NCBI GenBank assembly: GCA_046861395.1
Contig: JBHHUC010000040.1
Span: 1-18,696 of the forward strand
From: Fidelibacterota bacterium
Lineage (GTDB): Bacteria > Fidelibacterota > Marinisomatia > Marinisomatales > JABMOV01
DNA: 18,696 nucleotides
Reading direction: 5' to 3'
Shown: in pieces, positions 3 to 18,696 of the stretch
How the letters are laid out: every line of letters begins with the position of its first letter
How positions within the stretch are numbered: the stretch's first letter is position 1
The notes under the pieces: generated by a model
What the model saw: only the letters and a program-made list of their open reading frames with translations
Databases searched by the model: none
Told to the model about the DNA's origin: nothing
Position numbers and translations under genes: made by a program

Positions 3-1004
3 TTCGGAGAAGACCTGGGAACTTTCACGTCCTACATGATGGCTGTTACCGGATCCTACAGTACGCTTTTATCGCATAAATCCTCCATAGGTCTCAATGC
101 CAAAATATCCTACCAACATCTAGCAGAAATTGGTGCCGGAAACGAAAAGGGAAAGGGAACATCCCTCGATTTCGGTTTTGATATCGGCTATTTGAATAAA
201 GCATTTCTTACTGATCGTCTGACTCTGGGATTGACCGTCACGAATATTGGGCCGAAAGTATCCTTTATTGATCCCGCTCAGGCTGATCCCCAACCGACCA
301 ACCTGACACTGGGATTCAATCTGAAAGTAGTGAATTCCGAATTCAATAAACTCAGTCTGGTCTATGATGTGAATAAATTATTGGTTTCGGCTTATCCTGA
401 CATGGACTGGGACGGGGATTATCGCATTGGGGGATATGACACCGATGGTAATTATAACGGTGAAGGCGACTACAGCAAGAAGGGGGATTTGGAAGTGGCT
501 CATAAAGATCCCATCTATCTTGCGATTTTCACATCCTGGGTGGATGACTGGCTATTGGGCGGTGATTTGGATATGGCCCCTACCAACGGTACAGCCGACC
601 GCCAGATTGGCGGCTGGGACTGGGTGGATATTAACGGTAATGGCATAATTGATATCGACTCCGAGACCAATGAATTGGTGCGAACCTCCGATGTCGAACC
701 GGGTGATCCAGGCTGGGGAAAATATAATGAATACGGCCAGAAGGAAGTGGGCTCCGGTGATGCTAGATCAATTCAGGATGAATTGGATAAACTGATCCAT
801 AACATTGGTTTTGAATACTGGTACTCCACCTATTTTGCCATACGCGGTGGTATTTTAATCGATAAAACGGGTAAAATATATAATCCGACCTTCGGTGTAG
901 GCTTACGTTTCGCCGATTATGGTTTTGACTTCGGCTATACCTCCGGTCAGCCCGGCCATCCCCTGACCAATACGATGCGCTTTTCCCTCAGCTGGACATT
1001 TTAA
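3..1004 (+). CDS. PorV/PorQ-family (FadL-like) outer-membrane beta-barrel, 5'-truncated
   Basis: The frame is open from base 3 (FGEDLGTFTSYMMAVTGSY), so the true start lies upstream of the window. PorV-like motifs: GLNAKISY, FDIGYL, GLTVTNIGPKVSF, QADPQP, GFEYWY..FAIRGG, TFGVGL, DFGY, HPLTNTMRFSL, terminal Phe. Confidence 0.8.
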   Translation, partial: FGEDLGTFTSYMMAVTGSYSTLLSHKSSIGLNAKISYQHLAEIGAGNEKGKGTSLDFGFDIGYLNKAFLTDRLTLGLTVTNIGPKVSFIDPAQADPQPTNLTLGFNLKVVNSEFNKLSLVYDVNKLLVSAYPDMDWDGDYRIGGYDTDGNYNGEGDYSKKGDLEVAHKDPIYLAIFTSWVDDWLLGGDLDMAPTNGTADRQIGGWDWVDINGNGIIDIDSETNELVRTSDVEPGDPGWGKYNEYGQKEVGSGDARSIQDELDKLIHNIGFEYWYSTYFAIRGGILIDKTGKIYNPTFGVGLRFADYGFDFGYTSGQPGHPLTNTMRFSLSWTF

Positions 1005-1022
1005 CCGGGACACCACGGACTC

Positions 1023-3854: not shown

Positions 3855-6815
3855 TTGAATCGTTCTATTTTTAGCCTGATTTGTTTGGTTGCCTTGATAC
3901 CGGTTTTATTGTCGGGCCAAGTTCAGTATAATCACCCGGAATTGAATTGGCATACAATCGAAACGGAACATTATTATATCCATTTTCATGATGAAACGGA
4001 ATGGACAGCCCGCGAAGGGGCGGAAGTTGCGGAAAAAATTTATCCTTCCATAACCGGATTGTATGAGCATGAACCTGAGAAAAAAACACATTTGATTTTC
4101 ATCGATACCGACGATTTCTCGAACGGCGCTGCGTATTATTATGATAATAAAATCTATATCTGGGCTACTCCTCTGGATTATGATTTACGTGGCAGTCATC
4201 GCTGGTTGCAGAATGTAATCACCCATGAATTCACGCATATTGTTTCGATTCAAAAAGCCATGAAGGCCGGAACGAAAATTCCCGGGGCCTATTTTCAGTG
4301 GATGGGGTATGAAGAATATAAACGAAAAGATGTTCTCTATGGTTTTCCCGATCGTCTGATGAGTTATCCCATCCCCGGTACGGTTGTTCCGCCCTGGCTG
4401 GCTGAGGGCGTCTCTCAGTACATGTATGACGGTTCCACCTGGGATACGTGGGATTCCCACCGTGATATGATTCTCCGTGATCGGGTTATGCATCAAAACC
4501 TGCTGTCATTTGACGAAATGAATTCATTCGGGAAAAGGGGAATCGGAAACGAATCGGTTTATAATGCCGGCTATGCTCTTTGTCGCTATATCGGTGTAAA
4601 ATATGGTTCGGATGCTTTTCGCATCATCATGGAGGAATTATCCCGACCCCTGCAGTTTTCCATAAACTCCGCCATGGAAAAAGCGATTGGCCGACCGGGA
4701 ACGGATGTCTATGATGATTTCGCTCGCACCCTGGACCAGCGATACACGATACTGACCCGATCAGTCAGGTCACATTCCCAAACTGGAAAGATATTGCTGC
4801 AGGACGGGACAACCAATATTCATCCGGTATGGAATCCCAACGGAACGGCCTTTGCCTATTTGTCGAATAAGAATGGGGATTATTTCGGTCAGACCGAATT
4901 ATTTGTTTATGATCTTGACACCGGGGAGGATAAGAAAATCCTGGGTGGTATTTCCAGTGCTGTATCCTGGCATCCGGGCGGCAAGAAACTCTATATCAGC
5001 CGACGACCAGAGCAACCAAACCGCCACGGGTCCCGGTTTTACGATATTTATGAATATGATTTAATAACGGAGAAAGACAAGCGCCTAACCGTTGATGCCC
5101 GCGCTTTTTCTCCCGTTTTCATTCCGGGGGATTCAACCCTGGCTTATCTGGGGACTTATGATGGCGGCCAGAATATTCATTTTATAAAACTTGCGACAGG
5201 GGAGAGATATCAGTTGACCGATTTCAAGGATCACCGCATGATTCATTCCCTGATATATGTGGCGGCGGAAAATAAATTGATTTTCGATTATACGAATAAT
5301 CATTACCGCAATATTGGCTATTATTCCTTTTCCGATTCTAGTCTGGGGGACCTGTTGAGCGAGCCATTATGGGATGAACGGAACCTTACTATTACTACCG
5401 ACGGAAAAATCGTGTATGCCGATGACCGGACCGGTATTTATAATCTTTATCTGCTGAACCCAGCGACAGGGGAACAAGGTTTTATTACGAATGTATTGGG
5501 CGGCGCCTTCATGCCTTCCGTTTCTCCGCAGGGAAAAATTCTATATTCATTATATGATAACGGAAGATATAACATAGCATTACTGGATACAGTTAAAGTT
5601 TTGCCTGATACGGTGGTTGGCTATTCACCTCTTTTTTACCTACGTAATGAAGGGATAGCTGAACCATTGCAAGGCATGAATCAGGATACGGCGGTTACGT
5701 ATCATGATCAATTCGCCGAAATGTTTATCATGCCCAAACTTATGGTGGATTACGGGACTTTCAAGCCGGGAATATATTTTTATTCTGGTGAAATTATCGA
5801 TCGGCTTACGTTGTTCGGCGGGGCTTCCATAAACCGCGTCAATGATCTGGATTTGTTTTTTCTGTTTGAGTTTAAACGTTTTTATCCCACCGTATTTCTG
5901 GAATCCTTTTACCTGACACGGAATATCCGTGAAAACGATGTTTATTCGGTTTATCATCTGGATAACAATATTCGTTATCGCATGACATATTTTCGTGGTG
6001 GATTACGTTTTCCCATTCGGGGACGCCACAGTCTGGAAATGACCACTGCCTGGCAGGTCTATCGTGCATTCATTGATCAATCCGTGCCCGGCACAACAAT
6101 TCAGGCCGGGTTTGCCTATGATTATTATCGGGGTTGGGTGGGAGGCCTGCACTGGCAGACTGTCGCCCGAAAACCACGCTTTGACGGCAATATCAATCCG
6201 TCCAACGGTTTTCGCCTGGATGTGAATCTGAATTATGAGAAAAATGATTTCATCGAAGGATTAAATCTCTCCGATGCCGGAACCATTATCCCCGAATACA
6301 GTAAAGCCAATAACCTGTTGCGGCTGGAAGGGGAAAGTGAATATTCGCTGGAAATCCCCCGAACCAACCGCTGGACCGTATCTTTGCAAACAAAAATTGG
6401 TTGGATGAATAATACCGAAGCCGATTCGTTCTTCAACTTTTTTGCCGGCGGACTATATGGCATCAAAGGATATCCCTTTTACAGTATCGAAGGCAATCGC
6501 CTGGCCACCGGATCGCTTATTTTCCGTATTCCTCTTTTCCGGGAAAAACAAATTCATATCGGCTGGGTGCATTTCCAGAATTCAGTCCTGGGATTCGAAT
6601 ACCAGTACGGGGATGCCTGGAGCGATCGATTCGCGGCGAAACCATCTCTGGGAATTCAATGGCGAATCAATGGCTATTCCTTTTATAATTTCCCCACTGC
6701 AATTGGCCTTGAAGTCCATAGAGGTCTAACAAGCATTCATAATCAAGTCAATGATCAGGTGTACACCTATGGTAAAGAAAACAGATATTATTTCACACTT
6801 TTATTCGGCTTTTAA
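3855..6815 (+). CDS. Gluzincin (peptidase MA-like) + TolB/PD40 beta-propeller + C-terminal outer-membrane beta-barrel fusion
   Basis: TTG start immediately after the previous TAA, with a signal peptide. HEFTH (4224-4238) and downstream PPWLAEGVSQY. PD40-like blades (HPVWNPNG, VSWHPGG, MPSVSPQG). FFAGGLYGIKGYPFYS resembles the Omp85 GG..RGY loop, and the protein ends YYFTLLFGF. Confidence 0.78.
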   Translation: MNRSIFSLICLVALIPVLLSGQVQYNHPELNWHTIETEHYYIHFHDETEWTAREGAEVAEKIYPSITGLYEHEPEKKTHLIFIDTDDFSNGAAYYYDNKIYIWATPLDYDLRGSHRWLQNVITHEFTHIVSIQKAMKAGTKIPGAYFQWMGYEEYKRKDVLYGFPDRLMSYPIPGTVVPPWLAEGVSQYMYDGSTWDTWDSHRDMILRDRVMHQNLLSFDEMNSFGKRGIGNESVYNAGYALCRYIGVKYGSDAFRIIMEELSRPLQFSINSAMEKAIGRPGTDVYDDFARTLDQRYTILTRSVRSHSQTGKILLQDGTTNIHPVWNPNGTAFAYLSNKNGDYFGQTELFVYDLDTGEDKKILGGISSAVSWHPGGKKLYISRRPEQPNRHGSRFYDIYEYDLITEKDKRLTVDARAFSPVFIPGDSTLAYLGTYDGGQNIHFIKLATGERYQLTDFKDHRMIHSLIYVAAENKLIFDYTNNHYRNIGYYSFSDSSLGDLLSEPLWDERNLTITTDGKIVYADDRTGIYNLYLLNPATGEQGFITNVLGGAFMPSVSPQGKILYSLYDNGRYNIALLDTVKVLPDTVVGYSPLFYLRNEGIAEPLQGMNQDTAVTYHDQFAEMFIMPKLMVDYGTFKPGIYFYSGEIIDRLTLFGGASINRVNDLDLFFLFEFKRFYPTVFLESFYLTRNIRENDVYSVYHLDNNIRYRMTYFRGGLRFPIRGRHSLEMTTAWQVYRAFIDQSVPGTTIQAGFAYDYYRGWVGGLHWQTVARKPRFDGNINPSNGFRLDVNLNYEKNDFIEGLNLSDAGTIIPEYSKANNLLRLEGESEYSLEIPRTNRWTVSLQTKIGWMNNTEADSFFNFFAGGLYGIKGYPFYSIEGNRLATGSLIFRIPLFREKQIHIGWVHFQNSVLGFEYQYGDAWSDRFAAKPSLGIQWRINGYSFYNFPTAIGLEVHRGLTSIHNQVNDQVYTYGKENRYYFTLLFGF

Positions 6816-7732: not shown

Positions 7733-8497
7733 ATGAAAAAACTCATTATACTTTTTCTTTTGACTGGATTATGGTTGGGGTGTTCGTCATCGAAACCTGA
7801 TTTAACCAGCAATTTCAATGCCCGGTTTGAAAAGGGAATGGAATACCTTGAAAAGAAAAAGTATCTCAGGGCTCAGGAAGAATTTAATTATGTTGCCATC
7901 AGTGGCGGCCATACCGAACTGGGTGACGATGCTTTGTTCTATTTGGGGGAAGCATATTTCAGGAATAAAGAATATATTCTGGCACGGGCCGAATACGACC
8001 GCCTGGTCCGCCGCATGAGTTTCAGTCCGTTTCTGGAGCAAGCCCGCTGGCGCATTTGTCAGTGTTATGTCAACGAATCCCCCAAATATTACCATGATCA
8101 GACCAGCACGGAAAAGGCGCTGGATAAACTCCAGGAGTTTATAGAGGATTTTCCTACCTCGGAATATCGTGAGGAGGCGGGAAAAACCATGGTGGAATTA
8201 CGGGAAAAGCTGGGGATGAAGGCCTATCAGACCGGAATCCTGTATATCAAGCTGGGCGCTTATGACTCGGCAATTTTGGCCTTCGAACAGGTTCTCCAGA
8301 ATTATTATGACACCGACCTGGTGCCGCAAGCCCATGCCGGTATTATTCAAAGCCATTGCCTGGTACTGAATGTGGCAGAGGCGGAGTCGTATTATGCCGG
8401 TGTACGGGAAATAATTAAAGAGGCGGGATTGGAAGATGATGTAAATTCTTACCTGGAGAAGGCCCGAAAAAAATTGGCCAGAAAGAACCGGAAATGA
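7733..8497 (+). CDS. bamD: Outer-membrane protein assembly lipoprotein BamD
   Basis: AAGGA at 7721, then ATG 7733 giving MKKLIILFLLTGLWLGC (lipobox-like, Cys17). TPR helices, SPKYYHDQTST..A...Q.FIEDFP.SEY, and LYIKLGAYDSA. Confidence 0.88.
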   Translation: MKKLIILFLLTGLWLGCSSSKPDLTSNFNARFEKGMEYLEKKKYLRAQEEFNYVAISGGHTELGDDALFYLGEAYFRNKEYILARAEYDRLVRRMSFSPFLEQARWRICQCYVNESPKYYHDQTSTEKALDKLQEFIEDFPTSEYREEAGKTMVELREKLGMKAYQTGILYIKLGAYDSAILAFEQVLQNYYDTDLVPQAHAGIIQSHCLVLNVAEAESYYAGVREIIKEAGLEDDVNSYLEKARKKLARKNRK

Positions 8498-9081
8498 AAA
8501 TTTGCCTGTTTGGGGGTACCTTTGATCCGCCGCATATCGGACACCTGCTGGTTGCACAGACCATTACGGAAGCGGAAAATTTTGATAAAATAGTATTTAT
8601 TCCGGCCTGGAAAGCACCGCACAAGCTGGAGAACCATATCACACCAATGAAGGACCGCTTGGCGATGCTGGAAAAAGCCATTGCGGATAATCCCCACTTT
8701 GAAATATCCGATATTGAGATTAAACGGGGTGGTATTTCCTATTCCCTTGATACAATTCTGGAATATAAAGAACAACATAACCTGACGCGAAAAGAGCTTT
8801 ATTTCCTGATTGGGAGCGATTCCCTGAAAGAATTTCATACCTGGCATAAGCCAAAACGTATTCTGGAAGAATGCCAGGTCATCGTGGCCCTGCGCCCCGG
8901 ATTTAACCCCACCACCATACAGAATTTCATCCTGCATGAGATCCAGTTTGCCAATATTCCCCGGTTTGAAGTGTCATCAACAAACATCCGTCGCCGCTGG
9001 CGCGAAAATAAAACAATCCGGTATATGGTAACCCAGCAGGTCTGGGATTATATCAACGATCATAATCTGTACGACAGATGA
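8494..9081 (+). CDS. nadD: Nicotinate-nucleotide adenylyltransferase
   Basis: GGTFDPPHIGH, SYSLDTI, FLIGSDS..F.TW and VSSTNIR. ATGA overlap with bamD. Confidence 0.95.
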   Translation: MKICLFGGTFDPPHIGHLLVAQTITEAENFDKIVFIPAWKAPHKLENHITPMKDRLAMLEKAIADNPHFEISDIEIKRGGISYSLDTILEYKEQHNLTRKELYFLIGSDSLKEFHTWHKPKRILEECQVIVALRPGFNPTTIQNFILHEIQFANIPRFEVSSTNIRRRWRENKTIRYMVTQQVWDYINDHNLYDR

Positions 9082-10001
9082 TTCTGTATTTACTTCTTTT
9101 ATTCATCGGATCCGTTCTCCTGTACTATGGTGCCGATCTGGTCGTGAAAGGGGGAATACATATTGCGGAAGAATTCCGTGTTTCCCATCTTGTCATTGGA
9201 TTGACTGTGGTTGCCTTCGGAACATCCCTGCCGGAACTGGTAGTCAGTCTGAATGCGGCCATTTCCGATGCGAATACCATCGCCATTGGAAATATTATCG
9301 GTTCCAATATTGCCAATGTGGGACTGGTCCTGGGAATCAGTTCGCTCCTTTTTCCAGTCACAATACAGCTCCAGGAAATCAAGCGCGACCTGTTGTATTA
9401 CGTTATCGTTTCCTTTGTTTTCGTTCTCATGATTATGAATGGAATCATATCCCGTTTGGAAGGTGTATTTCTGTTTGGCGGTATCATCGGTTACACCATC
9501 ATGATGATCCGGCGTCCACCGGCCGAAGTGACGGAACGGGAAGACCATTTTACATCCATGAAGGCGGCCGCCGTTGCACTGGTGGGGGGCGTCATTCTGT
9601 TATGGTGCGGGGCGGAAGTTTTTGTCTATGGCGCGATCCGTATCGCCAGGATTTTAGGCGTCAGTGAAATTGTCATCGGAATGTCGATTGTAGCCCTGGG
9701 TACGTCCCTGCCGGAATTTGCCACGTCGTTTGTGGCCGCTCTGAAAAAACAGAGTGCGATTTCGATCGGAAATATTGTGGGTTCCAATTTATTTAACGTT
9801 CTCTCTGTTCTGGGGATTACGGCCATGGTGGCACCGCTGGCCTCACCGCGGCATATTCTGTTTCTGGAAATTCCTTACATGCTGGTTTACGGAATCATTC
9901 TTTTCCCCATCGCCTTCATGAAACAGCCGGTACCCCGCTGGGTATCGCTGCTCCTATTTGCCGGCTATATCATTTTCCTCAGCCAACTCTTTTATTCCTG
10001 A
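9078..10001 (+). CDS. Calcium/sodium antiporter (YrbG-like, CaCA family)
   Basis: Two alpha repeats GTSLPE...GNIIGSN and GTSLPE...GNIVGSN, with many hydrophobic helices. Confidence 0.93.
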   Translation: MILYLLLLFIGSVLLYYGADLVVKGGIHIAEEFRVSHLVIGLTVVAFGTSLPELVVSLNAAISDANTIAIGNIIGSNIANVGLVLGISSLLFPVTIQLQEIKRDLLYYVIVSFVFVLMIMNGIISRLEGVFLFGGIIGYTIMMIRRPPAEVTEREDHFTSMKAAAVALVGGVILLWCGAEVFVYGAIRIARILGVSEIVIGMSIVALGTSLPEFATSFVAALKKQSAISIGNIVGSNLFNVLSVLGITAMVAPLASPRHILFLEIPYMLVYGIILFPIAFMKQPVPRWVSLLLFAGYIIFLSQLFYS

Positions 10002-10022
10002 CGGAATTTCCGGGGATTTTCA

Positions 10023-10057
10023 TTGGTTACACAGAAGCCTAAATCCTATATTTTCCC
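10023..10057 (+). promoter_or_regulatory. Putative promoter for a leaderless ftsE transcript
   Basis: TTGGTT (10023-10028), 18 nt spacer, TATATT (10047-10052), then 5 nt to ATG 10058. No Shine-Dalgarno. Confidence 0.35.
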
Positions 10058-10708
10058 ATGATCCGGTTCGAAAATGTTTCCCATACCTATCGCAAGGGGG
10101 ATGGTGTAAAAAATATTTCCTTTGAAGTGTCAAAAGGGGAATTCTCCTTTTTGATCGGTCCCACCGGTTCCGGTAAAACAACGATCATGAAACTGATTTA
10201 CGGCGAACTGAAGCCTGACAGCGGTACCATCATTGTCAACGGACAGAAATTGAAAAACCTGAAACCGCGGCATTTATCAAAATATCGTCAGGATATCGGG
10301 TACATTTTTCAGGAATATTATTTAATGCCGGACCGCAATTTATTCCAGAATATTGCATTGGCCCTGCACATTGTCGGGGTAGCGAAGGATGAAGTGGAAG
10401 ATCGTGTCATGACTGTCTTAGAAGCGGTTGGACTGGCAGATAAGGAATTATATTTTCCAAAAGAATTATCTGGTGGTGAACAACAGCGGGCCTGCATTGC
10501 CCGTGCCTTGGTTAAGGAGCCGGAAATCCTGCTGGCCGATGAACCCACTGGAAATCTGGATCCCATAACATCCTTTGAATTGCTCAAGCTGCTGAATGCC
10601 ATCAATGAAGATGGGACTACAGTTCTCATGGCTTCGCATAACTATAATCTGATCAAAGGACAGGGACGGAAGATTTATGAAATCACGGATGGAGAAATGA
10701 AGACCTAA
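10058..10708 (+). CDS. ftsE: Cell division ABC ATP-binding protein FtsE
   Basis: GPTGSGKTT, LSGGEQQR and ILLADEPTGNLD. TAATG-coupled to an ftsX-like gene. Confidence 0.88.
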   Translation: MIRFENVSHTYRKGDGVKNISFEVSKGEFSFLIGPTGSGKTTIMKLIYGELKPDSGTIIVNGQKLKNLKPRHLSKYRQDIGYIFQEYYLMPDRNLFQNIALALHIVGVAKDEVEDRVMTVLEAVGLADKELYFPKELSGGEQQRACIARALVKEPEILLADEPTGNLDPITSFELLKLLNAINEDGTTVLMASHNYNLIKGQGRKIYEITDGEMKT

Positions 10709-11571
10709 TGTCCAAATTGGCCTTTCTATTTTCCGAGGGACTTAAAAACCTTTGGCGGCATAAACTCACCGCTTTTGCCGCCATTGTTACGAATGCGATC
10801 TGCCTCACGTTCATCGGCTTATTCATACTGGTGGGAGACAATACGCATCAGGTGCTGGAATATTTTCGGGGCAAATATAAAATTGAAATCTTTTTTAATG
10901 AAAATGTGGGAGAATCGGCGGCTCAGGAACTGGTGAATACCTTTCAATCCTATCCCAATGTACGTTCGGTGACACTCATTACCAGGGATGACGCCGCCCG
11001 GATATTTCAACAGCAATACGGCGAAGATGTCATCGCCATGCTGGGATATAATCCCTTTCCTCTCAGCTGTGTGGTAAATGTGTTGCAGGACCCGAACGCA
11101 TCCCTGGACATTGATCAACTGGTAAGAAAAATCGGAAAGACCCAGGGCGTGGCAGAAGTCCATCACCAGGGACGACTGATACGACGAATTGAATGGTTTT
11201 ACAATAAAGCGGTTGAGTTGGGAATGTACCTGATCCTGGGTTTGATAGTATTAACCATCATCATTGTCTCCAATACGATTCGTCTTACGGTATATGCCAA
11301 GCGGGATCTCATTACTATTCTGAGAACTATTGGTGCATCCAAAATATTTATCCGAACTCCGTTTATGCTGGAAGCCATGTTCCAGGCTCTGATCAGTTTC
11401 GGATTGGCGACTGGCACCATCTATGGCCTCATAACTGCTTTCAATAAAGTCGGTCCCCGACTAATTGCCACAACGATTCATATTGAATATACCAGTTTTA
11501 TCATTCTGGGTGTGATCTCCATCTGCATGGCCTGGGTGGGGAGCTACCGGGCAACATCTAAATTTTTATAG
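10708..11571 (+). CDS. ftsX: Cell division permease FtsX
   Basis: EGLKNLWR, TM1, periplasmic loop containing NPFP, then SNTIRLTVYAKR..I..L..IGA...FIRTPFMLE and further TM helices. Confidence 0.9.
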   Translation: MSKLAFLFSEGLKNLWRHKLTAFAAIVTNAICLTFIGLFILVGDNTHQVLEYFRGKYKIEIFFNENVGESAAQELVNTFQSYPNVRSVTLITRDDAARIFQQQYGEDVIAMLGYNPFPLSCVVNVLQDPNASLDIDQLVRKIGKTQGVAEVHHQGRLIRRIEWFYNKAVELGMYLILGLIVLTIIIVSNTIRLTVYAKRDLITILRTIGASKIFIRTPFMLEAMFQALISFGLATGTIYGLITAFNKVGPRLIATTIHIEYTSFIILGVISICMAWVGSYRATSKFL

Positions 11572-11593
11572 TATTATCATGCGATTTCCAACC

Positions 11594-11630
11594 TTGACTG
11601 TGCCTCGAGGGAAATTCTAATTTTTCGGTC
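11594..11630 (+). promoter_or_regulatory. Putative sigma70-type promoter for a leaderless hrcA transcript
   Basis: TTGACT (11594-11599), 18 nt spacer, TAATTT (11618-11623), then 7 nt to ATG 11631. No Shine-Dalgarno. Confidence 0.5.
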
Positions 11631-12647
11631 ATGATTCAGTCAAAAAATATTCAATTGACACCGCGGGAAGAGGCCATATTAAAGGCCACCATCGAGGATT
11701 ATATTGAAACAATCCAACCGGTGGGGTCCAGTTTTCTGAAGCGTGTACATCATTTTGACTGGAGTCCCGCGACGATCCGACATTCCCTGGCCCGACTGGA
11801 ATCGTTCGGATTGCTAACTCATCCATTCACGTCAGCCGGCAGAATGCCCACCGATGCCGGTTATCGCTATTATGTGGATCATCTGATGAATGCGGATGAT
11901 GTAGACATTGCCTTGGATGAAATGCTGGAAGAATTAAAACGTTTTAACAACCAAATTGACAATTTATTATCGGCCACGGCGATAGTTTTGGCCCGCTCCA
12001 GTCAATTATTAGGTGTGGTTCTCCTATCCAATGTCCGTAAAAGTATTCTGACCGGATTGGAACTGATTGAACTTTCTTCGGAACGGATCATGCTGGTGCT
12101 GGAAGTTGACTCCGGCTTGATTCAGTCCCTTGTATTGAATTTAAATGTGGCCATTGACCGGACCCGGCTGGCGAAGATCAATCGCGTATTACGGGAAATG
12201 CTTATTGGGTTGACCCTGGAAGACATCCGTGAATCTTTCCAGCATCGGGTGCAGGAAGCTGATGTTTCGGATCATGAGATAGTTCAGATACTGCTGAAAA
12301 AACCGGCCGCCTATTTCTCGTTTGATACAGGAGAAAAAGTATTTACATCTTCATTCGAACCTTTATTGCAATACCCCGAATTTCAGAATATCGAAGCTAT
12401 CCGGGATATTATTTCAGGACTGAGCAGCGGATCAATTAAATCCTATCTGAAAGAAATTTCTCAGGATACTGTTATCGGTCATGAAAATGAAGATGAACGG
12501 TTTCACGATTGTGCCATTTTGAAATGTGATTTTCATCTGGATTCACTTCAGGGACGGTTGGCGGTAATCGGACCTAAACGCTTACCCTACCGGATTGTCA
12601 GCAAAACCTTAAACACATTTGCGGAGTTACTGCCTTATGTCATCTGA
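11631..12647 (+). CDS. hrcA: Heat-inducible transcription repressor HrcA
   Basis: LTPRE..IL...IEDYI....PVGS, SPATIR, TSAGRMPTDAGYRYYVD and GRLAVIGPKRLPY. Lies upstream of grpE. Confidence 0.93.
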   Translation: MIQSKNIQLTPREEAILKATIEDYIETIQPVGSSFLKRVHHFDWSPATIRHSLARLESFGLLTHPFTSAGRMPTDAGYRYYVDHLMNADDVDIALDEMLEELKRFNNQIDNLLSATAIVLARSSQLLGVVLLSNVRKSILTGLELIELSSERIMLVLEVDSGLIQSLVLNLNVAIDRTRLAKINRVLREMLIGLTLEDIRESFQHRVQEADVSDHEIVQILLKKPAAYFSFDTGEKVFTSSFEPLLQYPEFQNIEAIRDIISGLSSGSIKSYLKEISQDTVIGHENEDERFHDCAILKCDFHLDSLQGRLAVIGPKRLPYRIVSKTLNTFAELLPYVI

Positions 12648-13167
12648 AGATAAAAAAACGAAGAAATCCACCCGGAAAAAACCTGCCAAGCCCCGGGTTT
12701 CCAAGGATAAACAGCAAATAAAAAAAATAACGGAAGAATTAAAATCGCTCGAGGAAAAACATCTACGCCTGAAGGCCGAATTTGAGAATTTCCGTCGGCG
12801 CAAGGAACGGGAAATCCAGAAAATGCTGGAATACGAAGGCCAGGACATCTTTGCCGATTTACTGCCGATCGTAGATGATCTGGATCGATCCGTGAAATCA
12901 TTCCAGGATGGGAAAGAGGCCAGTGAAGAATCCCTGAAAAAAGGCATCACCATGATTCACAATAAATTTGAAAAATTCCTGTCCAACTGGAAACTGAAAC
13001 CCTTTGGGGAGTCCGGCGATACCCTGAATGCCGAAATTCATGATGCCTTGATGATTCGTCATGATGAAAACGCCGGGGATGATGAAATTCTTGAAGTATT
13101 TGAAAAAGGCTACACGTATAAAGATCGCGTTATTCGTCATGCCAAAGTAGTTGTAAATAAATCGTGA
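12637..13167 (+). CDS. grpE: Nucleotide exchange factor GrpE
   Basis: LRLKAEFENFRRR, LLPIVDDLDR, HDALM and KGY..KDRVIRHAKVVV. GGAG at 12623-12626 favours ATG 12637. Confidence 0.95.
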   Translation: MSSEDKKTKKSTRKKPAKPRVSKDKQQIKKITEELKSLEEKHLRLKAEFENFRRRKEREIQKMLEYEGQDIFADLLPIVDDLDRSVKSFQDGKEASEESLKKGITMIHNKFEKFLSNWKLKPFGESGDTLNAEIHDALMIRHDENAGDDEILEVFEKGYTYKDRVIRHAKVVVNKS

Positions 13168-14291
13168 AAGATTTATACGAAATCCTGGGTGTCGCCCGGG
13201 ATGCCAGCGCCGACGAAATAAAACGAGCCTATCGTAAAATCGCAATGAAGTACCATCCGGATAAGAATCCGGGTGACAGCGAAGCCGAAACCAGGTTTAA
13301 AGAGGCCGCTGAAGCGTACTCCATTTTAAACGATTCCCAGAAGCGGGCCCAGTATGACCAATTCGGACATGCCGGTGTCGGTTTGGGGGAGCAGGGAGGA
13401 ACCGGCGGCTTCGGTGGTGGTATTCACATGTCCATGGAAGACATTTTTCGCCAGTTTGGTGATATTTTCGGTGGCCGATCACCATTTGATGATATCTTTG
13501 GTGGCGGTGGGTCACGGGGAGGAGGATATGCCCGTAAAGCAAAGGACCTGAAAATCACACTGACCTTAAGTCCTCAGGAAATATTGACGGGTGTGGATAA
13601 AACCGTTAATCTGAATCGATTTGAGACCTGCGATACCTGTAACGGTAACGGTGCCCGGCCGGGGACCATGCCATCCCGCTGCCGACATTGTGGTGGTAGC
13701 GGACAGGTCCGACAAATTTCCCGTTCCTTTTTCGGTCAATCCGTTGTGGTCTCCGATTGTCCAGTGTGCCAGGGAGAAGGTGAAATTGTGGAAACGCCCT
13801 GCCAATCCTGCGGCGGTAAGGGAATCCAACGCAAGAAAGTGGCCATAAAGATCAAAGTACCAAAAGGTGTGGCCAGTGGCAATTACATGACGCTGGAAGG
13901 CCAGGGGAATAAGGGTGGCAAAGGGGTTTATTCCGGTGACCTGGTCGTGTTCTTCGAGGAACAGGAACATCCCTACTTTGTACGTGATGAACAGGATGTT
14001 CATATGACAGTGAAATTGTCCCTCACGGATTGTGCGCTGGGTACGACTATAGAGGTTCCTACCATCGAAGGAAAGGCGAAACTGAAAATTCCGGCAGGTA
14101 TCCAATCGGGGCAGAAGTTGAGGATGAAAGGCAAGGGTTATCCGCGGCTACGATCCTCCCACCGTGGGGATCAGTATGTAAAAGTACAGGTCGTTACACC
14201 TAAATCGCTGTCAAGAAAAGAAAAAGAATTATTACAGGAGCTGCAGGCCATCAGCAAACAGAAACCATCCTTTTCCCTTGGAGATATCTAA
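13164..14291 (+). CDS. dnaJ: Chaperone DnaJ (class A)
   Basis: J domain with HPD, G/F-rich region, four CxxCxGxG motifs and the C-terminal domain. GTG start overlaps the grpE stop. Confidence 0.97.
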   Translation: MKDLYEILGVARDASADEIKRAYRKIAMKYHPDKNPGDSEAETRFKEAAEAYSILNDSQKRAQYDQFGHAGVGLGEQGGTGGFGGGIHMSMEDIFRQFGDIFGGRSPFDDIFGGGGSRGGGYARKAKDLKITLTLSPQEILTGVDKTVNLNRFETCDTCNGNGARPGTMPSRCRHCGGSGQVRQISRSFFGQSVVVSDCPVCQGEGEIVETPCQSCGGKGIQRKKVAIKIKVPKGVASGNYMTLEGQGNKGGKGVYSGDLVVFFEEQEHPYFVRDEQDVHMTVKLSLTDCALGTTIEVPTIEGKAKLKIPAGIQSGQKLRMKGKGYPRLRSSHRGDQYVKVQVVTPKSLSRKEKELLQELQAISKQKPSFSLGDI

Positions 14292-14687
14292 ATGTTGTTC
14301 ACTCCCCGGGAAAAGCTGGTACTGCAATTTATCCTAACGGTTGCTGGAATAGGTCTCATCACCGGCATTGTTCGACGATCCTGGACAGTAGATCATATTC
14401 CAATGAAAATTTCGCACGTGAAAAAACCGGTTTTAACTGAACCCGAAACCAAGTTACCGATAACCGCAGAAAAGGCTACTGACGATTCCTTAGAAATCGT
14501 TAATATTAATATTGCGAATATTGATGAATTGACATCACTGCCGAATATTGGTCCCGTGGCAGCGCAGCGAATCATAGCCTATCGGGAACAATACGGTGAG
14601 TTTAAAACTGTGGATGAGATTCAGCGCGTAAAAGGCATTGGTGCCAAAACGTATGCCAAAATTTTATCCCGGATAAGCGTTAAATAG
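14292..14687 (+). CDS. comEA: ComEA-family membrane-anchored helix-hairpin-helix DNA-binding protein
   Basis: N-terminal TM, linker, then VNINIA..DEL.SLPNIGP..AQRII.YRE..G.F and RVKGIGAK. Confidence 0.82.
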   Translation: MLFTPREKLVLQFILTVAGIGLITGIVRRSWTVDHIPMKISHVKKPVLTEPETKLPITAEKATDDSLEIVNINIANIDELTSLPNIGPVAAQRIIAYREQYGEFKTVDEIQRVKGIGAKTYAKILSRISVK

Positions 14688-14695
14688 GATTAAAG

Positions 14696-15457
14696 ATGGA
14701 TGTAAAGAAAAGACAAAGATATGCCGATTTTCTGGAGCTGTTAATTGTTCTGGCGCTTGTGTTCCTGTTTATAACCTTGTCTGTTCCGACGGCGATCTGG
14801 GAAGAAGAAGCCCAGGTTGAGGAACAAGCCCATTTCCGGATGTCAACGATTTATGGAGTATACAATTTCTGCCGGGAATTAACGGGAGAATATTTTGATG
14901 ATGGTTTCCTTGCCATGAATCTCGTCAATGCCGCCCGTGACTCTGTTGTTGCCGATTCCACCTTCATCGGGGAACAGGAAATCACCCTGTTTGACCGGAA
15001 TTTTAAAGTTACCATACCTGAAGCGTTTGATGTAGAGTTCGATACGACATTTGGTTTTCAGAAAACCCGCCGTGACACCATTATTGATACCTCTGTAACC
15101 ATATTGAAATATGCCCTTACGCCTGACGGCTTCCGCGATGAATCGCGTATTGATACCGTTTATATTCAAATGAAACAGCTGGCGGCACAAAAACAGGATT
15201 CCCTCTTTATTCGCGTCCTGGAGGAAAAACCCTTGGAACGGGTGGAAGTGATCTCTTATTTCGATTCGTATAAACCAGATTCATCCATGTTTTTCTGTCC
15301 CGTTACGAATAAATCCTTCGTCATTGATATCCAGGAAGATAATATTCGGATTGCCAGTCCCATAACCGATGTCGTGAAAGAACCACGATATTTTATTTTT
15401 TCTTTCCAGGCTAACAATCATGGGTATATCGACGGCGGTGCGACCAGCTGGGATTAA
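14696..15457 (+). CDS. Hypothetical single-pass membrane protein with a degenerate type IV pilin-like N-terminus
   Basis: 253-aa ORF in the operon with AGGA upstream. KKRQRY-ADFLELLIVLALVFLFITLSVP. The CDS is well supported; the pilin relationship is inference. Confidence 0.6.
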   Translation: MDVKKRQRYADFLELLIVLALVFLFITLSVPTAIWEEEAQVEEQAHFRMSTIYGVYNFCRELTGEYFDDGFLAMNLVNAARDSVVADSTFIGEQEITLFDRNFKVTIPEAFDVEFDTTFGFQKTRRDTIIDTSVTILKYALTPDGFRDESRIDTVYIQMKQLAAQKQDSLFIRVLEEKPLERVEVISYFDSYKPDSSMFFCPVTNKSFVIDIQEDNIRIASPITDVVKEPRYFIFSFQANNHGYIDGGATSWD

Positions 15458-15466
15458 ACGGTTCCC

Positions 15467-17059
15467 GTGTATATTTTCGTCCTAACCAATGATAGCCTAT
15501 ACGGCTTATCTTGGTTTGAGGATGAAGGTCACAAAAAGATAACCGAAACTTTTACATTTTCTTTTGAAAAACAAATTCTATCCTGTATTGCCGATGAACA
15601 GCAATTAGCCAACACCATCGGCGGCATTCTGAGCCGAGTAGCGGAAGGGCGTGACTTTGCCGGTGAAACGGTACATGTTTTCCTCGATGAAACACTTGTA
15701 TTTGAAGAAATCATCATTCTCAGGGATGACCTGGATACATCCGAACTGCAGCAATATTTCGAACAAAAAAAACAATGGTTTTTAGGTGATATCGGTGCCC
15801 ATTATACTTACCGCTGGATCGAAAATCCTGATGTCAGACAGGAATATCACGTAACATTCATCCCGGCCGGACTACCCGATGCACTCAAACTGTCCATCCG
15901 TGAATTGGGGGCAAAGCCGGGACATCTGTTGGCTCCGGGGATCCTTGCTTTCATACCGGATGAGGTGCAGGTTCGACATGCCGTATTCGAATCGGTCCGG
16001 GGCTACACCGTATATGGTTACACCGTTCGTGGAAATTTTATTACCGACCTGAAATTCCTGTCCGGATTGCCGAAATATTCCAATTGGTGTGGTGATACTA
16101 CCCTTCAGGAGCATCTGTTTGCAGATGAAATGGATGAAATTGATTCCCGGATTGCGTTTATCGGGACTTATACACCTAACCAGAAAAGTCATTGGCTGGA
16201 ATCCTGCGGCTATGTGGAAATTCCGCTTTCCGACTGGGAAATTCCCACCGATTTAGCCTTATCATCCGATGAGATTTCCGTATGCCAGTGGGTTGCGGAT
16301 ACTATGCCCCAAGCCTTGCCCAATCTCTATGATTCGCACGGATTGACTTACACCGTAACGTCGGAGCCGGAGTTGAAGCAGGCAGAGAGGCCTGCAGTAC
16401 ACCCCGAGAAGGAATCGGTGGAGGCAGAACTAGTACACCATTCCAGATATCATGGCGTTCTGGTTACAATATTTCTTCTCACGAGCCTGACCTATATAGC
16501 CGCAAATTGGAATTCGATTCGGGAATGGCACTATGTTGGCTATAAGCCGCCGGAATACACCATCAATACCTACGCCTCTCTTCCTGAAACGGCACAGTTT
16601 TGGCAGGAACAATCCCGGAATTATCTGTCAATTCTGACGCAAATCATAACAAAACCGGCACTGCAAGACTTCAATGACGTTGTCATCAGTTCCGATGAAT
16701 TGGAATTGCTTTACCCCGATACGATTCAGGTACAGAATATTTTGAGCGAAATCCTGTCAGACAGTTCGCCCGGAGAAGAAAAGGAAAGAACCGGATTTTT
16801 CATAGCTCCTCCGCAATGGCGGTCGCAGTTCTTACAATTATTCCCCACCGGGACACTGGATGTATATCGGGTTATCCACAAGGCTGGCTTTGATTATGTC
16901 CCCGTCACTCTGCGCCTGACCAGCGGGGATTCCATCGTTCGCTGTCTCAGATGGTTGGAGGGAAGCTACGCCAACATCATTGTCAGGAAGGCAGAATTAC
17001 ACCGGGATGACTCACGGTATTCCATCGTATTGTACATTGCCCTCCTGTCTCAATCCTGA
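15467..17059 (+). CDS. Hypothetical bitopic protein; N-terminus resembles a degenerate actin-like (PilM/GspL/DUF3822-like) domain
   Basis: 530-aa ORF with GTG start filling the gap between neighbours. One TM (GVLVTIFLLTSLTYIAANW, about 16454-16510). The fold assignment is by pattern only. Confidence 0.5.
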   Translation: MYIFVLTNDSLYGLSWFEDEGHKKITETFTFSFEKQILSCIADEQQLANTIGGILSRVAEGRDFAGETVHVFLDETLVFEEIIILRDDLDTSELQQYFEQKKQWFLGDIGAHYTYRWIENPDVRQEYHVTFIPAGLPDALKLSIRELGAKPGHLLAPGILAFIPDEVQVRHAVFESVRGYTVYGYTVRGNFITDLKFLSGLPKYSNWCGDTTLQEHLFADEMDEIDSRIAFIGTYTPNQKSHWLESCGYVEIPLSDWEIPTDLALSSDEISVCQWVADTMPQALPNLYDSHGLTYTVTSEPELKQAERPAVHPEKESVEAELVHHSRYHGVLVTIFLLTSLTYIAANWNSIREWHYVGYKPPEYTINTYASLPETAQFWQEQSRNYLSILTQIITKPALQDFNDVVISSDELELLYPDTIQVQNILSEILSDSSPGEEKERTGFFIAPPQWRSQFLQLFPTGTLDVYRVIHKAGFDYVPVTLRLTSGDSIVRCLRWLEGSYANIIVRKAELHRDDSRYSIVLYIALLSQS

Positions 17060-17061
17060 TT

Positions 17062-17577
17062 ATGCGTATTCTGACGGGACGATTCAAAGGTCATACCATA
17101 CTGACGAAAGATTTACCCTATCGTCCCACTCAGTCACGGGTCAGGAAAAGTTTATTCGATATACTGGGACCACTGGATGGGAAAACATTTTGTGACGGTT
17201 TTGCTGGTTCAGGAATCATGGGTATGGAAGCCTTGAGCCGTGGGGCGGAAGCGGTAACCCTTATCGAAAAAAACAAGGCCATCTATTCCTTGCTTAAGCG
17301 GAACACGGAACGATTTGAGACATCCCGACTACAATGCCTATTCGGTGATTATGTTCTCCGGATGGCCAGCCTGAGTGGATTTGACATTGTTTTCACTGAT
17401 CCGCCCTATCAGCTGGCGGCGGATAAGACGGAAATGACGCAGTTGATTGATACGTCACTAGCAGCACTGAATCAGGCCGGGATTTATATATTGGAAACAG
17501 CCAGTGATCTGGCCCAATTTCCTGCTGATCGTCATAAGAAATATGGTGATACAACCCTTTTATTTTGGAGAAAATAG
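17062..17577 (+). CDS. rsmD: 16S rRNA m2G966 methyltransferase, RsmD family
   Basis: MRILTGRFKG, RPT..RVR.SLF, FAGSG..G.EALSRGA, DPPY and KYGDT. Classic rsmD-coaD pairing. Confidence 0.92.
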   Translation: MRILTGRFKGHTILTKDLPYRPTQSRVRKSLFDILGPLDGKTFCDGFAGSGIMGMEALSRGAEAVTLIEKNKAIYSLLKRNTERFETSRLQCLFGDYVLRMASLSGFDIVFTDPPYQLAADKTEMTQLIDTSLAALNQAGIYILETASDLAQFPADRHKKYGDTTLLFWRK

Positions 17578-18060
17578 ATGAAACGGGTTATTTATCCAGG
17601 TACCTTTGACCCTATTCATAATGGACACATTGATATTGCCGAGCGGGCATCGAAACTATTTGACGAACTGATCTTTCTGGTTGCCGAGAATCAGCAGAAG
17701 CAGGCCTTATTCTCCGCCCAGGAGCGAAAAGGGATGATAACCGATGCCACGAAACATATACCAAATGTGGTCATTATGTCGACCCAGGATCTTGTGGTGA
17801 ATATCGCACGGCAGGAAAAAGCCATAGCCCTGATTCGGGGATTACGCCATGTAAGTGACTTCGAATTCGAATTTCAGATGGCCATGATGAATTATCACCT
17901 GAATCCTGAGGTAACCACGGTATTAATGATGCCGGATGAAAAATTTATTCATTTAAACTCTACCGTTGTGAAGAATGTGGCAAAATTAAAAGGCGATATT
18001 CGCGATTATGTTCCTGCCATTGTGGAACGTTACTTAAATCTGAAATTCCACTCCAGATAA
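17578..18060 (+). CDS. coaD: Pantetheine-phosphate adenylyltransferase
   Basis: IYPGTFDPIHNGHIDI, IRGLR..SDFEFE.QMA.MN and NSTVVK. Confidence 0.96.
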   Translation: MKRVIYPGTFDPIHNGHIDIAERASKLFDELIFLVAENQQKQALFSAQERKGMITDATKHIPNVVIMSTQDLVVNIARQEKAIALIRGLRHVSDFEFEFQMAMMNYHLNPEVTTVLMMPDEKFIHLNSTVVKNVAKLKGDIRDYVPAIVERYLNLKFHSR

Positions 18061-18092
18061 TTGTAAATTTTATACTCAAAATTTTCGGATAA

Positions 18093-18098
18093 AAGGAG
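18093..18098 (+). promoter_or_regulatory. Shine-Dalgarno site for the zinc-ribbon gene
   Basis: AAGGAG ending 11 nt before ATG 18110, in an AT-rich spacer that also has TATACT at 18071-18076 (possible -10). Confidence 0.55.
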
Positions 18099-18109
18099 AA
18101 AAACGTTCA

Positions 18110-18379
18110 ATGCCTACTTACGACTATTTGTGCCAAATATGTGGTTGTCGGTTTGAATATTTTCAATCCATGTCTGATGAACCATTAAATAAATGTCCCG
18201 AATGTGGCGGATCAGTTCGGCGACTGGTCAGTGGGGGATCCGGATTAATTTTCAAAGGAACCGGGTTTTATCTGACGGATTATAAAAAATCCAATTCCGG
18301 CACAAACAGGGAAAAGAAAACAGACGTTAAACCAGCCGCCACCATTAAATCAAAACAAAAGACGAAAAAGGATTTATAA
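18110..18379 (+). CDS. FmdB-family zinc-ribbon protein
   Basis: [14 protein letters not shown]....MSD....CPECGG...R..S....[11 protein letters not shown], with a basic low-complexity tail. Confidence 0.9.
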
Positions 18380-18696
18380 TGTCAACCTATCAATATTCAA
18401 GTATCCCGGCCGGTGGGGAAAAAATCACGGCCGAGAAGGGGAAACTGAACGTTCCGGATAATCCCATTATTCCTTTCATTGAAGGTGATGGTATCGGACC
18501 CGATATCTGGAATGCCGCTGTACGTGTCTTCGATGCGGCAGTGAATAAAGCCTATAATGGAAAAAGAAAAATTCATTGGATGGAAGTATTCGCCGGTGAA
18601 AAAGCCTTGGAAAAGACTGGCAGCTGGCTGCCGGATGAAACATTGGCCGTCATTCGTGAATTTTTAATTGCCATTAAAGGTCCTCTGACAACACCA
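18379..18696 (+). CDS. icd: Isocitrate dehydrogenase (E. coli Icd-type), 3'-truncated
   Basis: Not in the ORF track; translated by hand: [84 protein letters not shown] overlap with the previous gene. Confidence 0.95.

Follow-up and report, generated by a model that had tools for sequence, protein, structure and literature searches.

The best-described relatives of the locus analyzed here are the PilM, PilN, and PilO proteins of type IVa pili (Myxococcus, Pseudomonas, and Thermus), where PilM binds the N-terminus of PilN, and PilN and PilO pair in the periplasm; pilins themselves are regarded as dependent on cleavage and on a motor. In the type II secretion system (T2SS), GspL corresponds to a PilM-PilN fusion and is a single-pass protein without ATP motifs. 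The nearest precedent for reuse comes from Helicobacter pylori, which has no pili and, according to the accessible part of PMC10823254, employs PilM/N/O homologues as a membrane scaffold in its flagellar motor cage. Here, we compare with these systems three genes, ORF1 to ORF3, that lie between dnaJ and rsmD in an 18,696-nt window, i.e., the whole stretch of DNA that was analyzed (contig C82 of genome G000, assigned to Marinimicrobia/Fidelibacterota by the names of homologues; coordinates of the + strand).

ORF1 is a comEA-type gene, ORF2 is predicted to encode a pilin-like protein, and ORF3 a PilM-PilN-PilO-like fusion. With moderate confidence, we propose that ORF2 and ORF3 together constitute an old inner-membrane module, derived from a pilus, that needs no pilus motor and is independent of DNA uptake. 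We rank this explanation ahead of, in decreasing order of probability, an aid to DNA uptake, a pair of independent genes, and an accessory of canonical pili.

The pilin-like protein and the PilM-PilN-PilO-like fusion

ORF2 (14696..15457, +, 253 aa) has no family annotation of note in Pfam or NCBIfam and a single hydrophobic segment. Its short N-terminal tail leads into this transmembrane (TM) segment (aa 12-30), which is followed by a long helix reaching aa 63, a beta-rich insert at about aa 90-190, and a conserved C-terminal HGxIxxGxxSW motif ending at W252. A word-indexed search returned 121 homologues at E ≤ 0.001, and matches occur in 245 of 251 Marinisomatota genomes (163 of 167 when completeness is at least 90%), almost always at a single site; the double matches checked in five genomes are a single gene with a long insert. 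The ESM Atlas returned unnamed Fidelibacterota clusters only. An exhaustive profile search brought the family to 346 proteins at E ≤ 0.001, including insert-free forms of 153-170 aa and forms of up to 903 aa. Between the constant N-terminal helix and the C-terminal motif, the inserts vary: some forms of 858-903 aa have acidic DxNGNGxWD-type repeats, others of about 740 aa have internal duplications, and Calditrichota forms of about 565 aa have long helical bundles (P0242, P0267, P0176, P0238).

The predicted model of ORF2, with a predicted local distance difference test score (pLDDT) of 86, consists of a 60-residue N-terminal helix, the beta-rich insert, and a C-terminal sheet. Its ten best rows by VIA alignment are all type IV pilins or pseudopilins (Z 4.8-6.5), headed by EpsG (4lw9; Z 6.5, root-mean-square deviation (rmsd) 3.8, 98 aligned), which likens ORF2 to the T2SS pseudopilin GspG. 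A profile of 14 shorter forms of the family matches M. xanthus PilA (E 5.9e-6) as well as T. thermophilus PilA4 and PulG (3e-4), and seven of 31 wider relatives match the GspG family TIGR01710 at E ≤ 0.01. E14 and P31 of ORF2 are in register with pilin E5 and P22; a Glu occupies the E5 position in all 115 scored close homologues (of 120) and in 39 of 65 members phylum-wide, and a Pro the P22 position in 65/65. The class III (G/A|F) prepilin peptidase motif, present in seven canonical pilins of G000, was found in none of the 65 Marinisomatota members and none of the 31 wider ones, and Gly or Ala plus a hydrophobic residue stands at the cleavage position in one of the 65. We therefore observe a pilin fold, of moderate strength in the predicted model, and an α1-N helix with the E5 and P22 residues, without the class III signal, and we take ORF2 to be a predicted type IV pilin-fold protein devoid of a prepilin-peptidase site. 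Without cleavage, a pilin stays in the inner membrane and is not available for extraction into a filament, so that filament formation is improbable.

ORF3 (15467-17059, +, 530 aa) is likewise devoid of a Pfam or NCBIfam match of note. Because its direct homologue search gave one relative, indicating fast evolution, relatives were collected by their position after ORF2; a Pfam scan of 68 neighbor proteins gave two sub-threshold PilM hints only. In most loci of the source order, the ORF3-type gene is a single ORF of 460-650 aa, and in other classes it is two genes, the first encoding about 290-325 aa and the second a TM protein. The single hydrophobic segment of ORF3 (aa 330-346; 16454..16504, +) falls below the first, 19-residue threshold and scores 2.0 over 17 residues; it is a helix in the model (pLDDT 85). 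The part preceding it (aa 1-283; 15467..16315, +) resembles PilM (2ych; Z 13.4, rmsd 5.3, 249 aligned), with a match to FtsA too, GspL (4pht; Z 12.1), and BT_3980, a DUF3822 protein (3hrg; Z 11.4), and Foldseek matches the model to PilM (5eox, E 2e-10) and GspL (1yf5, E 3.4e-10).

Sequence comparisons of the split forms point in the same direction. A profile of their first gene limited to Marinisomatota matches M. xanthus PilM at E 4e-5, a value that improves to 1.9e-27 once other phyla are included, and 28 of 43 split PilM-like forms match PF11104. ORF3 alone has no PF11104 match; it is linked to the split forms by profile comparison (98.7%, E 3.6e-16). Fold and homology, taken from the ORF3 model and its split relatives, are thus those of PilM, i.e., actin-like with an FtsA-type subdomain. 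Nevertheless, the phosphate-1 DxG motif was found in 0/43 split and 1/38 fused forms and in 0/23 and 1/27 of two further sets, and the adenosine GG motif in 2/43, 3/38, 1/23, and 2/27, respectively, compared to 24/27 canonical PilM proteins, a comparison set that was itself picked on the DxG motif. Judged by its sequence, the PilM domain of ORF3 appears degenerate, its ATP-binding motifs having been lost.

At the fusion joint, N286-L287-Y288 (16322..16330, +) is likely a remnant of the PilN N-terminal motif. The second gene of the split forms begins with an INL-type motif in 31/31 cases, and an N-aromatic motif is found in 34/37 fused forms. This second gene matches canonical PilN and then PilO, in that order, at E 7e-4 and 8e-4 with low probability. 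The periplasmic part of ORF3 (aa 372-530; 16580..17059, +) would comprise a reduced PilN-like region followed by a PilO-like domain, the latter resembling PilO 2rjz (Z 8.7, rmsd 2.1, 85 aligned). A PilO/GspM ferredoxin-like domain after the TM helix is therefore present in the model, with weak sequence matches (E 0.007; 3/31 to PilO, 5/31 to T2SSM_b). Altogether, ORF3 is predicted to be a fusion of PilM, a TM helix, and a PilO-like domain, with a more doubtful PilN part in between. In several families (L044, L046, L048, L217, L220, L221, and L225), the PilN/O gene is trimmed to 100-130 aa, of which only the INL motif, the TM helix, and a linker are left, which suggests that what counts is the tether to the membrane. 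A complex prediction of ORF3 with ORF2 scored 0.00 and was counted as evidence neither way.

An earlier note on this DNA had described two unannotated single-TM proteins resembling a pilin and a fused alignment subunit; each has indeed one hydrophobic segment, and the pilin and actin-like folds were both predicted.

Compared to type IVa PilMNO, the module shares an actin-fold cytoplasmic domain, an INL-type motif, one TM helix, a PilO-like periplasmic domain, and the order M-N/O. It differs in the loss of the ATP motifs, in having N and O in one chain, fused to M as well in the source order, in the uncleavable pilin that precedes it, in the absence of pilP and pilQ from the locus, and in being kept without PilB and PilC. 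Like GspL, to whose cytoplasmic part it matches, ORF3 is a fused single-pass protein without ATP motifs, but the sequence profiles of the split forms match PilM and not GspL. Unlike in T2SS, no GspE, GspF, GspD, or GspO was found at the locus or in several carriers, and ORF2 has no class III signal.

Conservation of the locus and relation to DUF3822

The dnaJ gene (13164..14291, +) precedes ORF1, and rsmD (17062-17577) follows ORF3, with intergenic gaps of 0, 8, 9, and 2 nt from dnaJ through the three ORFs to rsmD, as the earlier note had it. We compared 65 hand-picked Marinisomatota loci, chosen for spread and enriched for genomes negative for ComEC or PilB. The ORF3-type gene adjoins ORF2 in 62 of them, rsmD lies downstream in 64, dnaJ upstream in 61, and comEA upstream in 48. 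Because these neighbors recur, the three-gene arrangement beside dnaJ and rsmD is not due to chance. The profiles had been built with 40 of the 65 loci; among the 25 others, the PilM-like gene was found in 23. The spacing suggests that ORF1 to ORF3 are co-transcribed with the flanking genes; a scan of the locus for promoters and terminators gave counts at chance level, equal to those of shuffles. A recent island was ruled out by a G+C content of 43-48%, like that of the flanks, and by the conserved position.

The linkage also holds in other phyla of the Fibrobacterota-Chlorobiota-Bacteroidota (FCB) group. When six short ORF2 forms were used to scan named genomes, 39 loci were found in Calditrichota, KSB1, Kryptonia, and other groups, with a PilM-like gene downstream of the pilin gene in 36; in the remaining three, there was a contig end, an under-threshold score, or a gene hidden by the ORF filter. 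In the phylum sample holding Kryptonia (Bacteroidota), the pilin family occurs in 62 of 151 genomes, and the Bacteroidota loci that were read consist of the pilin, a PilM-like gene, and rsmD, without an N/O gene.

A further relative is DUF3822 (PF12864; BT_3980, PDB 3HRG). Each of the 30 best DUF3822 loci has rsmD or coaD at its end, and a pilin-like gene lies directly upstream in nine of them. A tally was made over 151 genomes from the class to which one DUF3822 genome belongs, presumably Bacteroidia, with the unpublished genome G482 among them: 133 gave a match to DUF3822, 64 to the pilin, and 29 to a PilB-type ATPase, and for 49 of the 64 pilin-positive genomes no PilB-type ATPase was found. 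In the 30 best pilin loci of this class, DUF3822 is the next gene in 29/29 examined (G482 left out; five of the 29 helped to build the profile), and neither dnaJ nor comEA was detected upstream in these 29. Profile comparison connects DUF3822 to intermediate PilM-like forms (95%, E 2.5e-8; 73% with a wider set). There is no PF12864 match for ORF3 or for any of 43 split relatives, the homology running through the intermediates and the structure only; ORF3 also differs by its TM and PilO-like parts, and in many DUF3822 genomes no pilin-like gene was found. In a quick tree of 69 rows, used only for this split, canonical PilM and FtsA are separated from all orphan forms and DUF3822 by a branch with a Shimodaira-Hasegawa-like approximate likelihood ratio test (SH-aLRT) value of 97; branches are long. 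From position, fold, profile homology, and the pilin upstream, DUF3822 is the PilM-like member of the module in Bacteroidota, and the hypothetical-DUF3822-rsmD locus that the earlier note mentioned for that phylum is the same module.

DUF3822 is mentioned only in passing in the literature searched, and 3HRG was noted once, in the part of PMC3984277 seen, as a structural neighbor of PilO2. A description of the module was not found in that literature either, most subscription papers and bioRxiv supplements being outside its reach. A near-universal, unannotated Marinisomatota gene, ORF2, thereby gains an identity, and DUF3822, whose structure was solved in 2009 without a function and which is present in 133/151 genomes of its class, is tied to PilM and to a hidden pilin partner.

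Loss patterns of competence and pilus genes

ORF1 (14292..14687, +, 131 aa) has an N-terminal membrane anchor, the hydrophobic segment aa 9-27, and a helix-hairpin-helix (HhH) DNA-binding domain at aa 68-127 (PF12836, E 5.7e-19). It exceeds the cut-off of TIGR00426 (64.1 bits, cut-off 53.1) and stays below that of the full-length TIGR01259 (79.1 bits, cut-off 152). With an anchor and tandem HhH motifs, it is a ComEA-type protein, as the earlier note had proposed, and as the sole HHH_3 match it is the sole ComEA of G000, which also has comEC. Machinery built on ComEA and ComEC is represented by ORF1, but the loss pattern of ORF2 and ORF3 is different. Both ComEC and PilB statuses are available for 56 of the 65 locus genomes. 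In these, comEA adjoins the module in 37 of 39 ComEC-positive and in two of 17 ComEC-negative genomes, whereas ORF2 and the PilM-like gene after it are kept in 17/17 ComEC-negative and in 22/22 PilB-negative genomes. Ten of each negative set belong to one genus, the other seven ComEC-negatives to three families, and no statistic is claimed.

Thus, comEA goes when comEC goes, and ORF2 and ORF3 stay; comEA is probably a linked neighbor that serves ComEC and lies outside the ORF2/ORF3 module. Co-occurrence with ComEA and ComEC, as in natural transformation, is observed for ORF1 and not for ORF2 or ORF3. Because comEA tracks comEC and the two other genes persist without comEC or PilB, the three genes do not form one functional cassette, contrary to the earlier note. 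Its suggestion of a reduced or repurposed DNA-uptake or envelope module fits best in its repurposed-envelope half, the DNA-uptake half being weakened by this pattern. In one family branch (L043, L222, and L223; genomes G178, G148, and G164), the PilM/N/O gene is lost, and comEA and the pilin-like gene are kept directly before rsmD.

The same data bear on an alternative that we consider unlikely, namely that the pilin and the PilMNO-like scaffold help ComEA to pass DNA to ComEC without a retracting pilus, their retention in competence-less lineages being secondary. The position of comEA, the only one in G000, directly upstream in 48/65 Marinisomatota loci and in many loci of KSB1, Kryptonia, and other groups, is consistent with such an aid, as is the presence of comEA and comEC alongside the module in at least 11 genomes for which PilB was not found (of the PilB-negative loci, 12 carry comEA, and one of these 12 is ComEC-negative). 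Moreover, the machinery of naturally competent Riemerella has no known pilus homologues in the portion of PMC8459023 consulted. However, ORF2 and ORF3 are present in all 17 ComEC-negative genomes, only two of which have comEA, ORF2 is better conserved than DnaJ in competence-less small genomes, and comEA was not found within 1.5 kb of DUF3822 in the 30 best DUF3822 loci. The four uncharacterized Riemerella genes listed as essential for transformation in that portion have other domains (DUF5689/DUF5017, carboxypeptidase-regulatory, HhH, and DUF1343), by which their identity with this module was ruled out (PMC8459023).

The canonical pilus and competence genes of G000 lie elsewhere, some being named from sequence pattern: a pilin, pilT, minor pilins, and pilMNOPQ on contig C78; pilB, pilD, pilT, pilU, a secretin, and a PilM fusion on C55; pilB and pilC on C59; and comEC on C81. 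Hence, the ORF2/ORF3 locus is not the competence pilus of G000. The earlier note was right that no ATPase, platform, secretin, or ComEC gene is at the locus, and the genome-wide search places all of them elsewhere in G000, in canonical clusters. The PilM fusion on C55 (G000:C55:7248-9767) is an 840-aa protein in a second pilus-like cluster; PilM fusions of 680-1150 aa occur in many Marinisomatota.

In 80 hand-picked ORF2-positive genomes, each at least 90% complete, a PilB-type ATPase was found in 54 and not found in 26, and ComEC was found in 63 and not found in 17. In the single-contig genomes G071, G134, and G017, from three families, no PilB, PilC, secretin, PilD, or N-methyl pilin was found, nor any ComEA, ComEC, or FliG in G071. 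The locus itself has none of the genes that define a type IV filament system (its own ATPase, platform, peptidase, and secretin), so that the module does not count as belonging to any such system, although it would operate in the manner of the PilMNO alignment complex.

Ten genomes of one genus (f3), of 0.8-1.1 Mb, in which ComEA, ComEC, and FliG were likewise not found, keep the module as well. In these, the median ratio of nonsynonymous to synonymous substitution rates (dN/dS) is 0.051 for ORF2 (15 of 45 pairs usable), 0.071 for dnaJ (15), 0.26 for rsmD (32), and 0.43 for ORF3 (25), with dS near saturation, and the median identity over all 45 pairs is 80%, 75%, 57%, and 37%, respectively. 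ORF2 is under strong purifying selection in small genomes. A pilin family without cleavage or motor, yet under strong selection, would point to another way of employing the components of type IV filaments.

These genomes also bear on the least probable of the alternatives, a remote one in our judgment, in which ORF2 and ORF3 are trans-acting accessories of canonical pilus or secretion systems (a minor pilin and a second alignment complex) and decaying relics where those systems are gone. The PilB-type ATPases in 54/80 genomes, the pil clusters of G000, at least two in number, and the E5 residue kept in 115/115 scored close homologues would suit this explanation. Against it, ORF2 has no cleavage site, the canonical clusters have a PilM of their own, which the quick tree separates from the orphan family (SH-aLRT 97), and in genomes for which no pilus gene was found, ORF2 is still intact and strongly constrained by purifying selection.

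A flagellar-cage role was rejected as a general explanation: a match of FliG strength (E < 1e-30) was obtained in only 24/80 genomes. As G017 and the ten f3 carriers have no FliG match, the flagellum is not the general partner, and, unlike the H. pylori cage, the locus includes a pilin-like protein. A second FliG_C-domain protein of about 310 aa (G000:C112:5485-5793 and counterparts) occurs in most Marinisomatota searched, including those without a match of true-FliG strength, and was not found in the ten f3 genomes, G186, G005, and G017; it is possibly another orphaned nanomachine part.

Proposed role of the module and genomic surroundings

In the module that we favor, the uncut pilin-like ORF2 would stay in the inner membrane, spanning it once, and its head would face the periplasm. 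In the cytoplasm, the PilM-like domain would serve as a scaffold that is free of nucleotide and attached to the membrane through the PilN-like motif; in ORF3, the NLY/NFF motif of the fusion joint would supply the PilN N-terminus to PilM in cis. The PilN/O part may be an optional periplasmic brace, pairing within one chain and lost in the Bacteroidota loci seen. The job would likely be structural or sensory, connecting the scaffold in the cytoplasm with a stalk in the periplasm whose length varies, as the insert sizes give proteins of 146 to 900 aa. More tentatively, the uncleavable pilin and the nucleotide-free PilM (DUF3822 in Bacteroidia), with the optional PilN/O brace, could be a motorless envelope complex inherited from the FCB ancestor and doing core work, with the pilin as a fixed membrane stalk instead of a filament subunit. 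If so, this work would be important enough for the stalk to be conserved as strongly as DnaJ in ocean-type genomes of 1 Mb that have shed pili, flagella, and competence. Both genes are retained in cultured Bacteroidota amenable to genetics, in which the question is directly testable.

Several observations weigh against the proposed module. The pilin fold match of ORF2 lies below Z 8, Foldseek returned nothing at E ≤ 0.001 with its model, and the ORF2 profile matches the own pilins of G000 weakly (E 0.005, probability 7%). The PilN match is also weak (E 7e-4, probability 27%) and concerns the split forms only, with none for the fused alignment, and ORF3 is loosely constrained in f3 (dN/dS 0.43 with dS near saturation, 37% identity). 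The neighbors belong to a conserved housekeeping array, so that linkage alone says little. In the DUF3822 class, the PilM-like gene (133/151) is far commoner than the pilin (64/151), and three genomes of another group, f2, keep ORF2 with no ORF3 found. BT3980 is not listed among the genes essential in Bacteroides thetaiotaomicron in supplemented brain heart infusion (BHIS) in Table S1, the part of PMC8121099 seen, and 10.1101/2024.03.08.584156 reports a DUF3822 gene with a phage inserted in it. Neither BT3980 nor BT3981 was found in the nine supplementary files searched. Essentiality in all carriers was ruled out for B. thetaiotaomicron from these two sources (PMC8121099; 10.1101/2024.03.08.584156); the module is therefore ancient and widespread yet not indispensable everywhere.

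Some of these points would also suit two genes that share a pilus-operon origin but now act separately and stay together only through the conserved housekeeping operon, an explanation that we regard as rather improbable. Each gene is lost without the other in some genomes, their evolutionary rates differ about eightfold, and the flanking housekeeping genes are equally conserved in position. Nevertheless, the pair remains adjacent where the upstream context has been replaced, in 29/29 pilin loci of the DUF3822 class (five of which helped to build the profile) and in Calditrichota loci too.

The hrcA gene (11631-12647) and grpE (12619-13167) precede dnaJ, and rsmD is followed by coaD, the two (17062..18060, +) forming a downstream flank conserved in all phyla examined. 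More broadly, nadD, a Ca/Na antiporter gene, ftsE, ftsX, hrcA, grpE, and dnaJ on one side of the three ORFs and rsmD, coaD, fmdB, and icd on the other (8494-18696) form an array conserved into KSB1 and partly into Kryptonia.

Farther upstream, positions 36-3854 hold a PorV/PorQ-family gene and then a gene for a 943-aa M6-like metalloprotease with a type IX secretion system (T9SS) type A sorting domain, which points to type IX secretion substrates in the phylum. The next gene (3855-6815) encodes a 986-aa protein with an HExxH peptidase-like N-terminal part, a TolB-like propeller, and a likely C-terminal beta-barrel, and sits upstream of a DUF5683 gene and a gene for a BamD-like lipoprotein.

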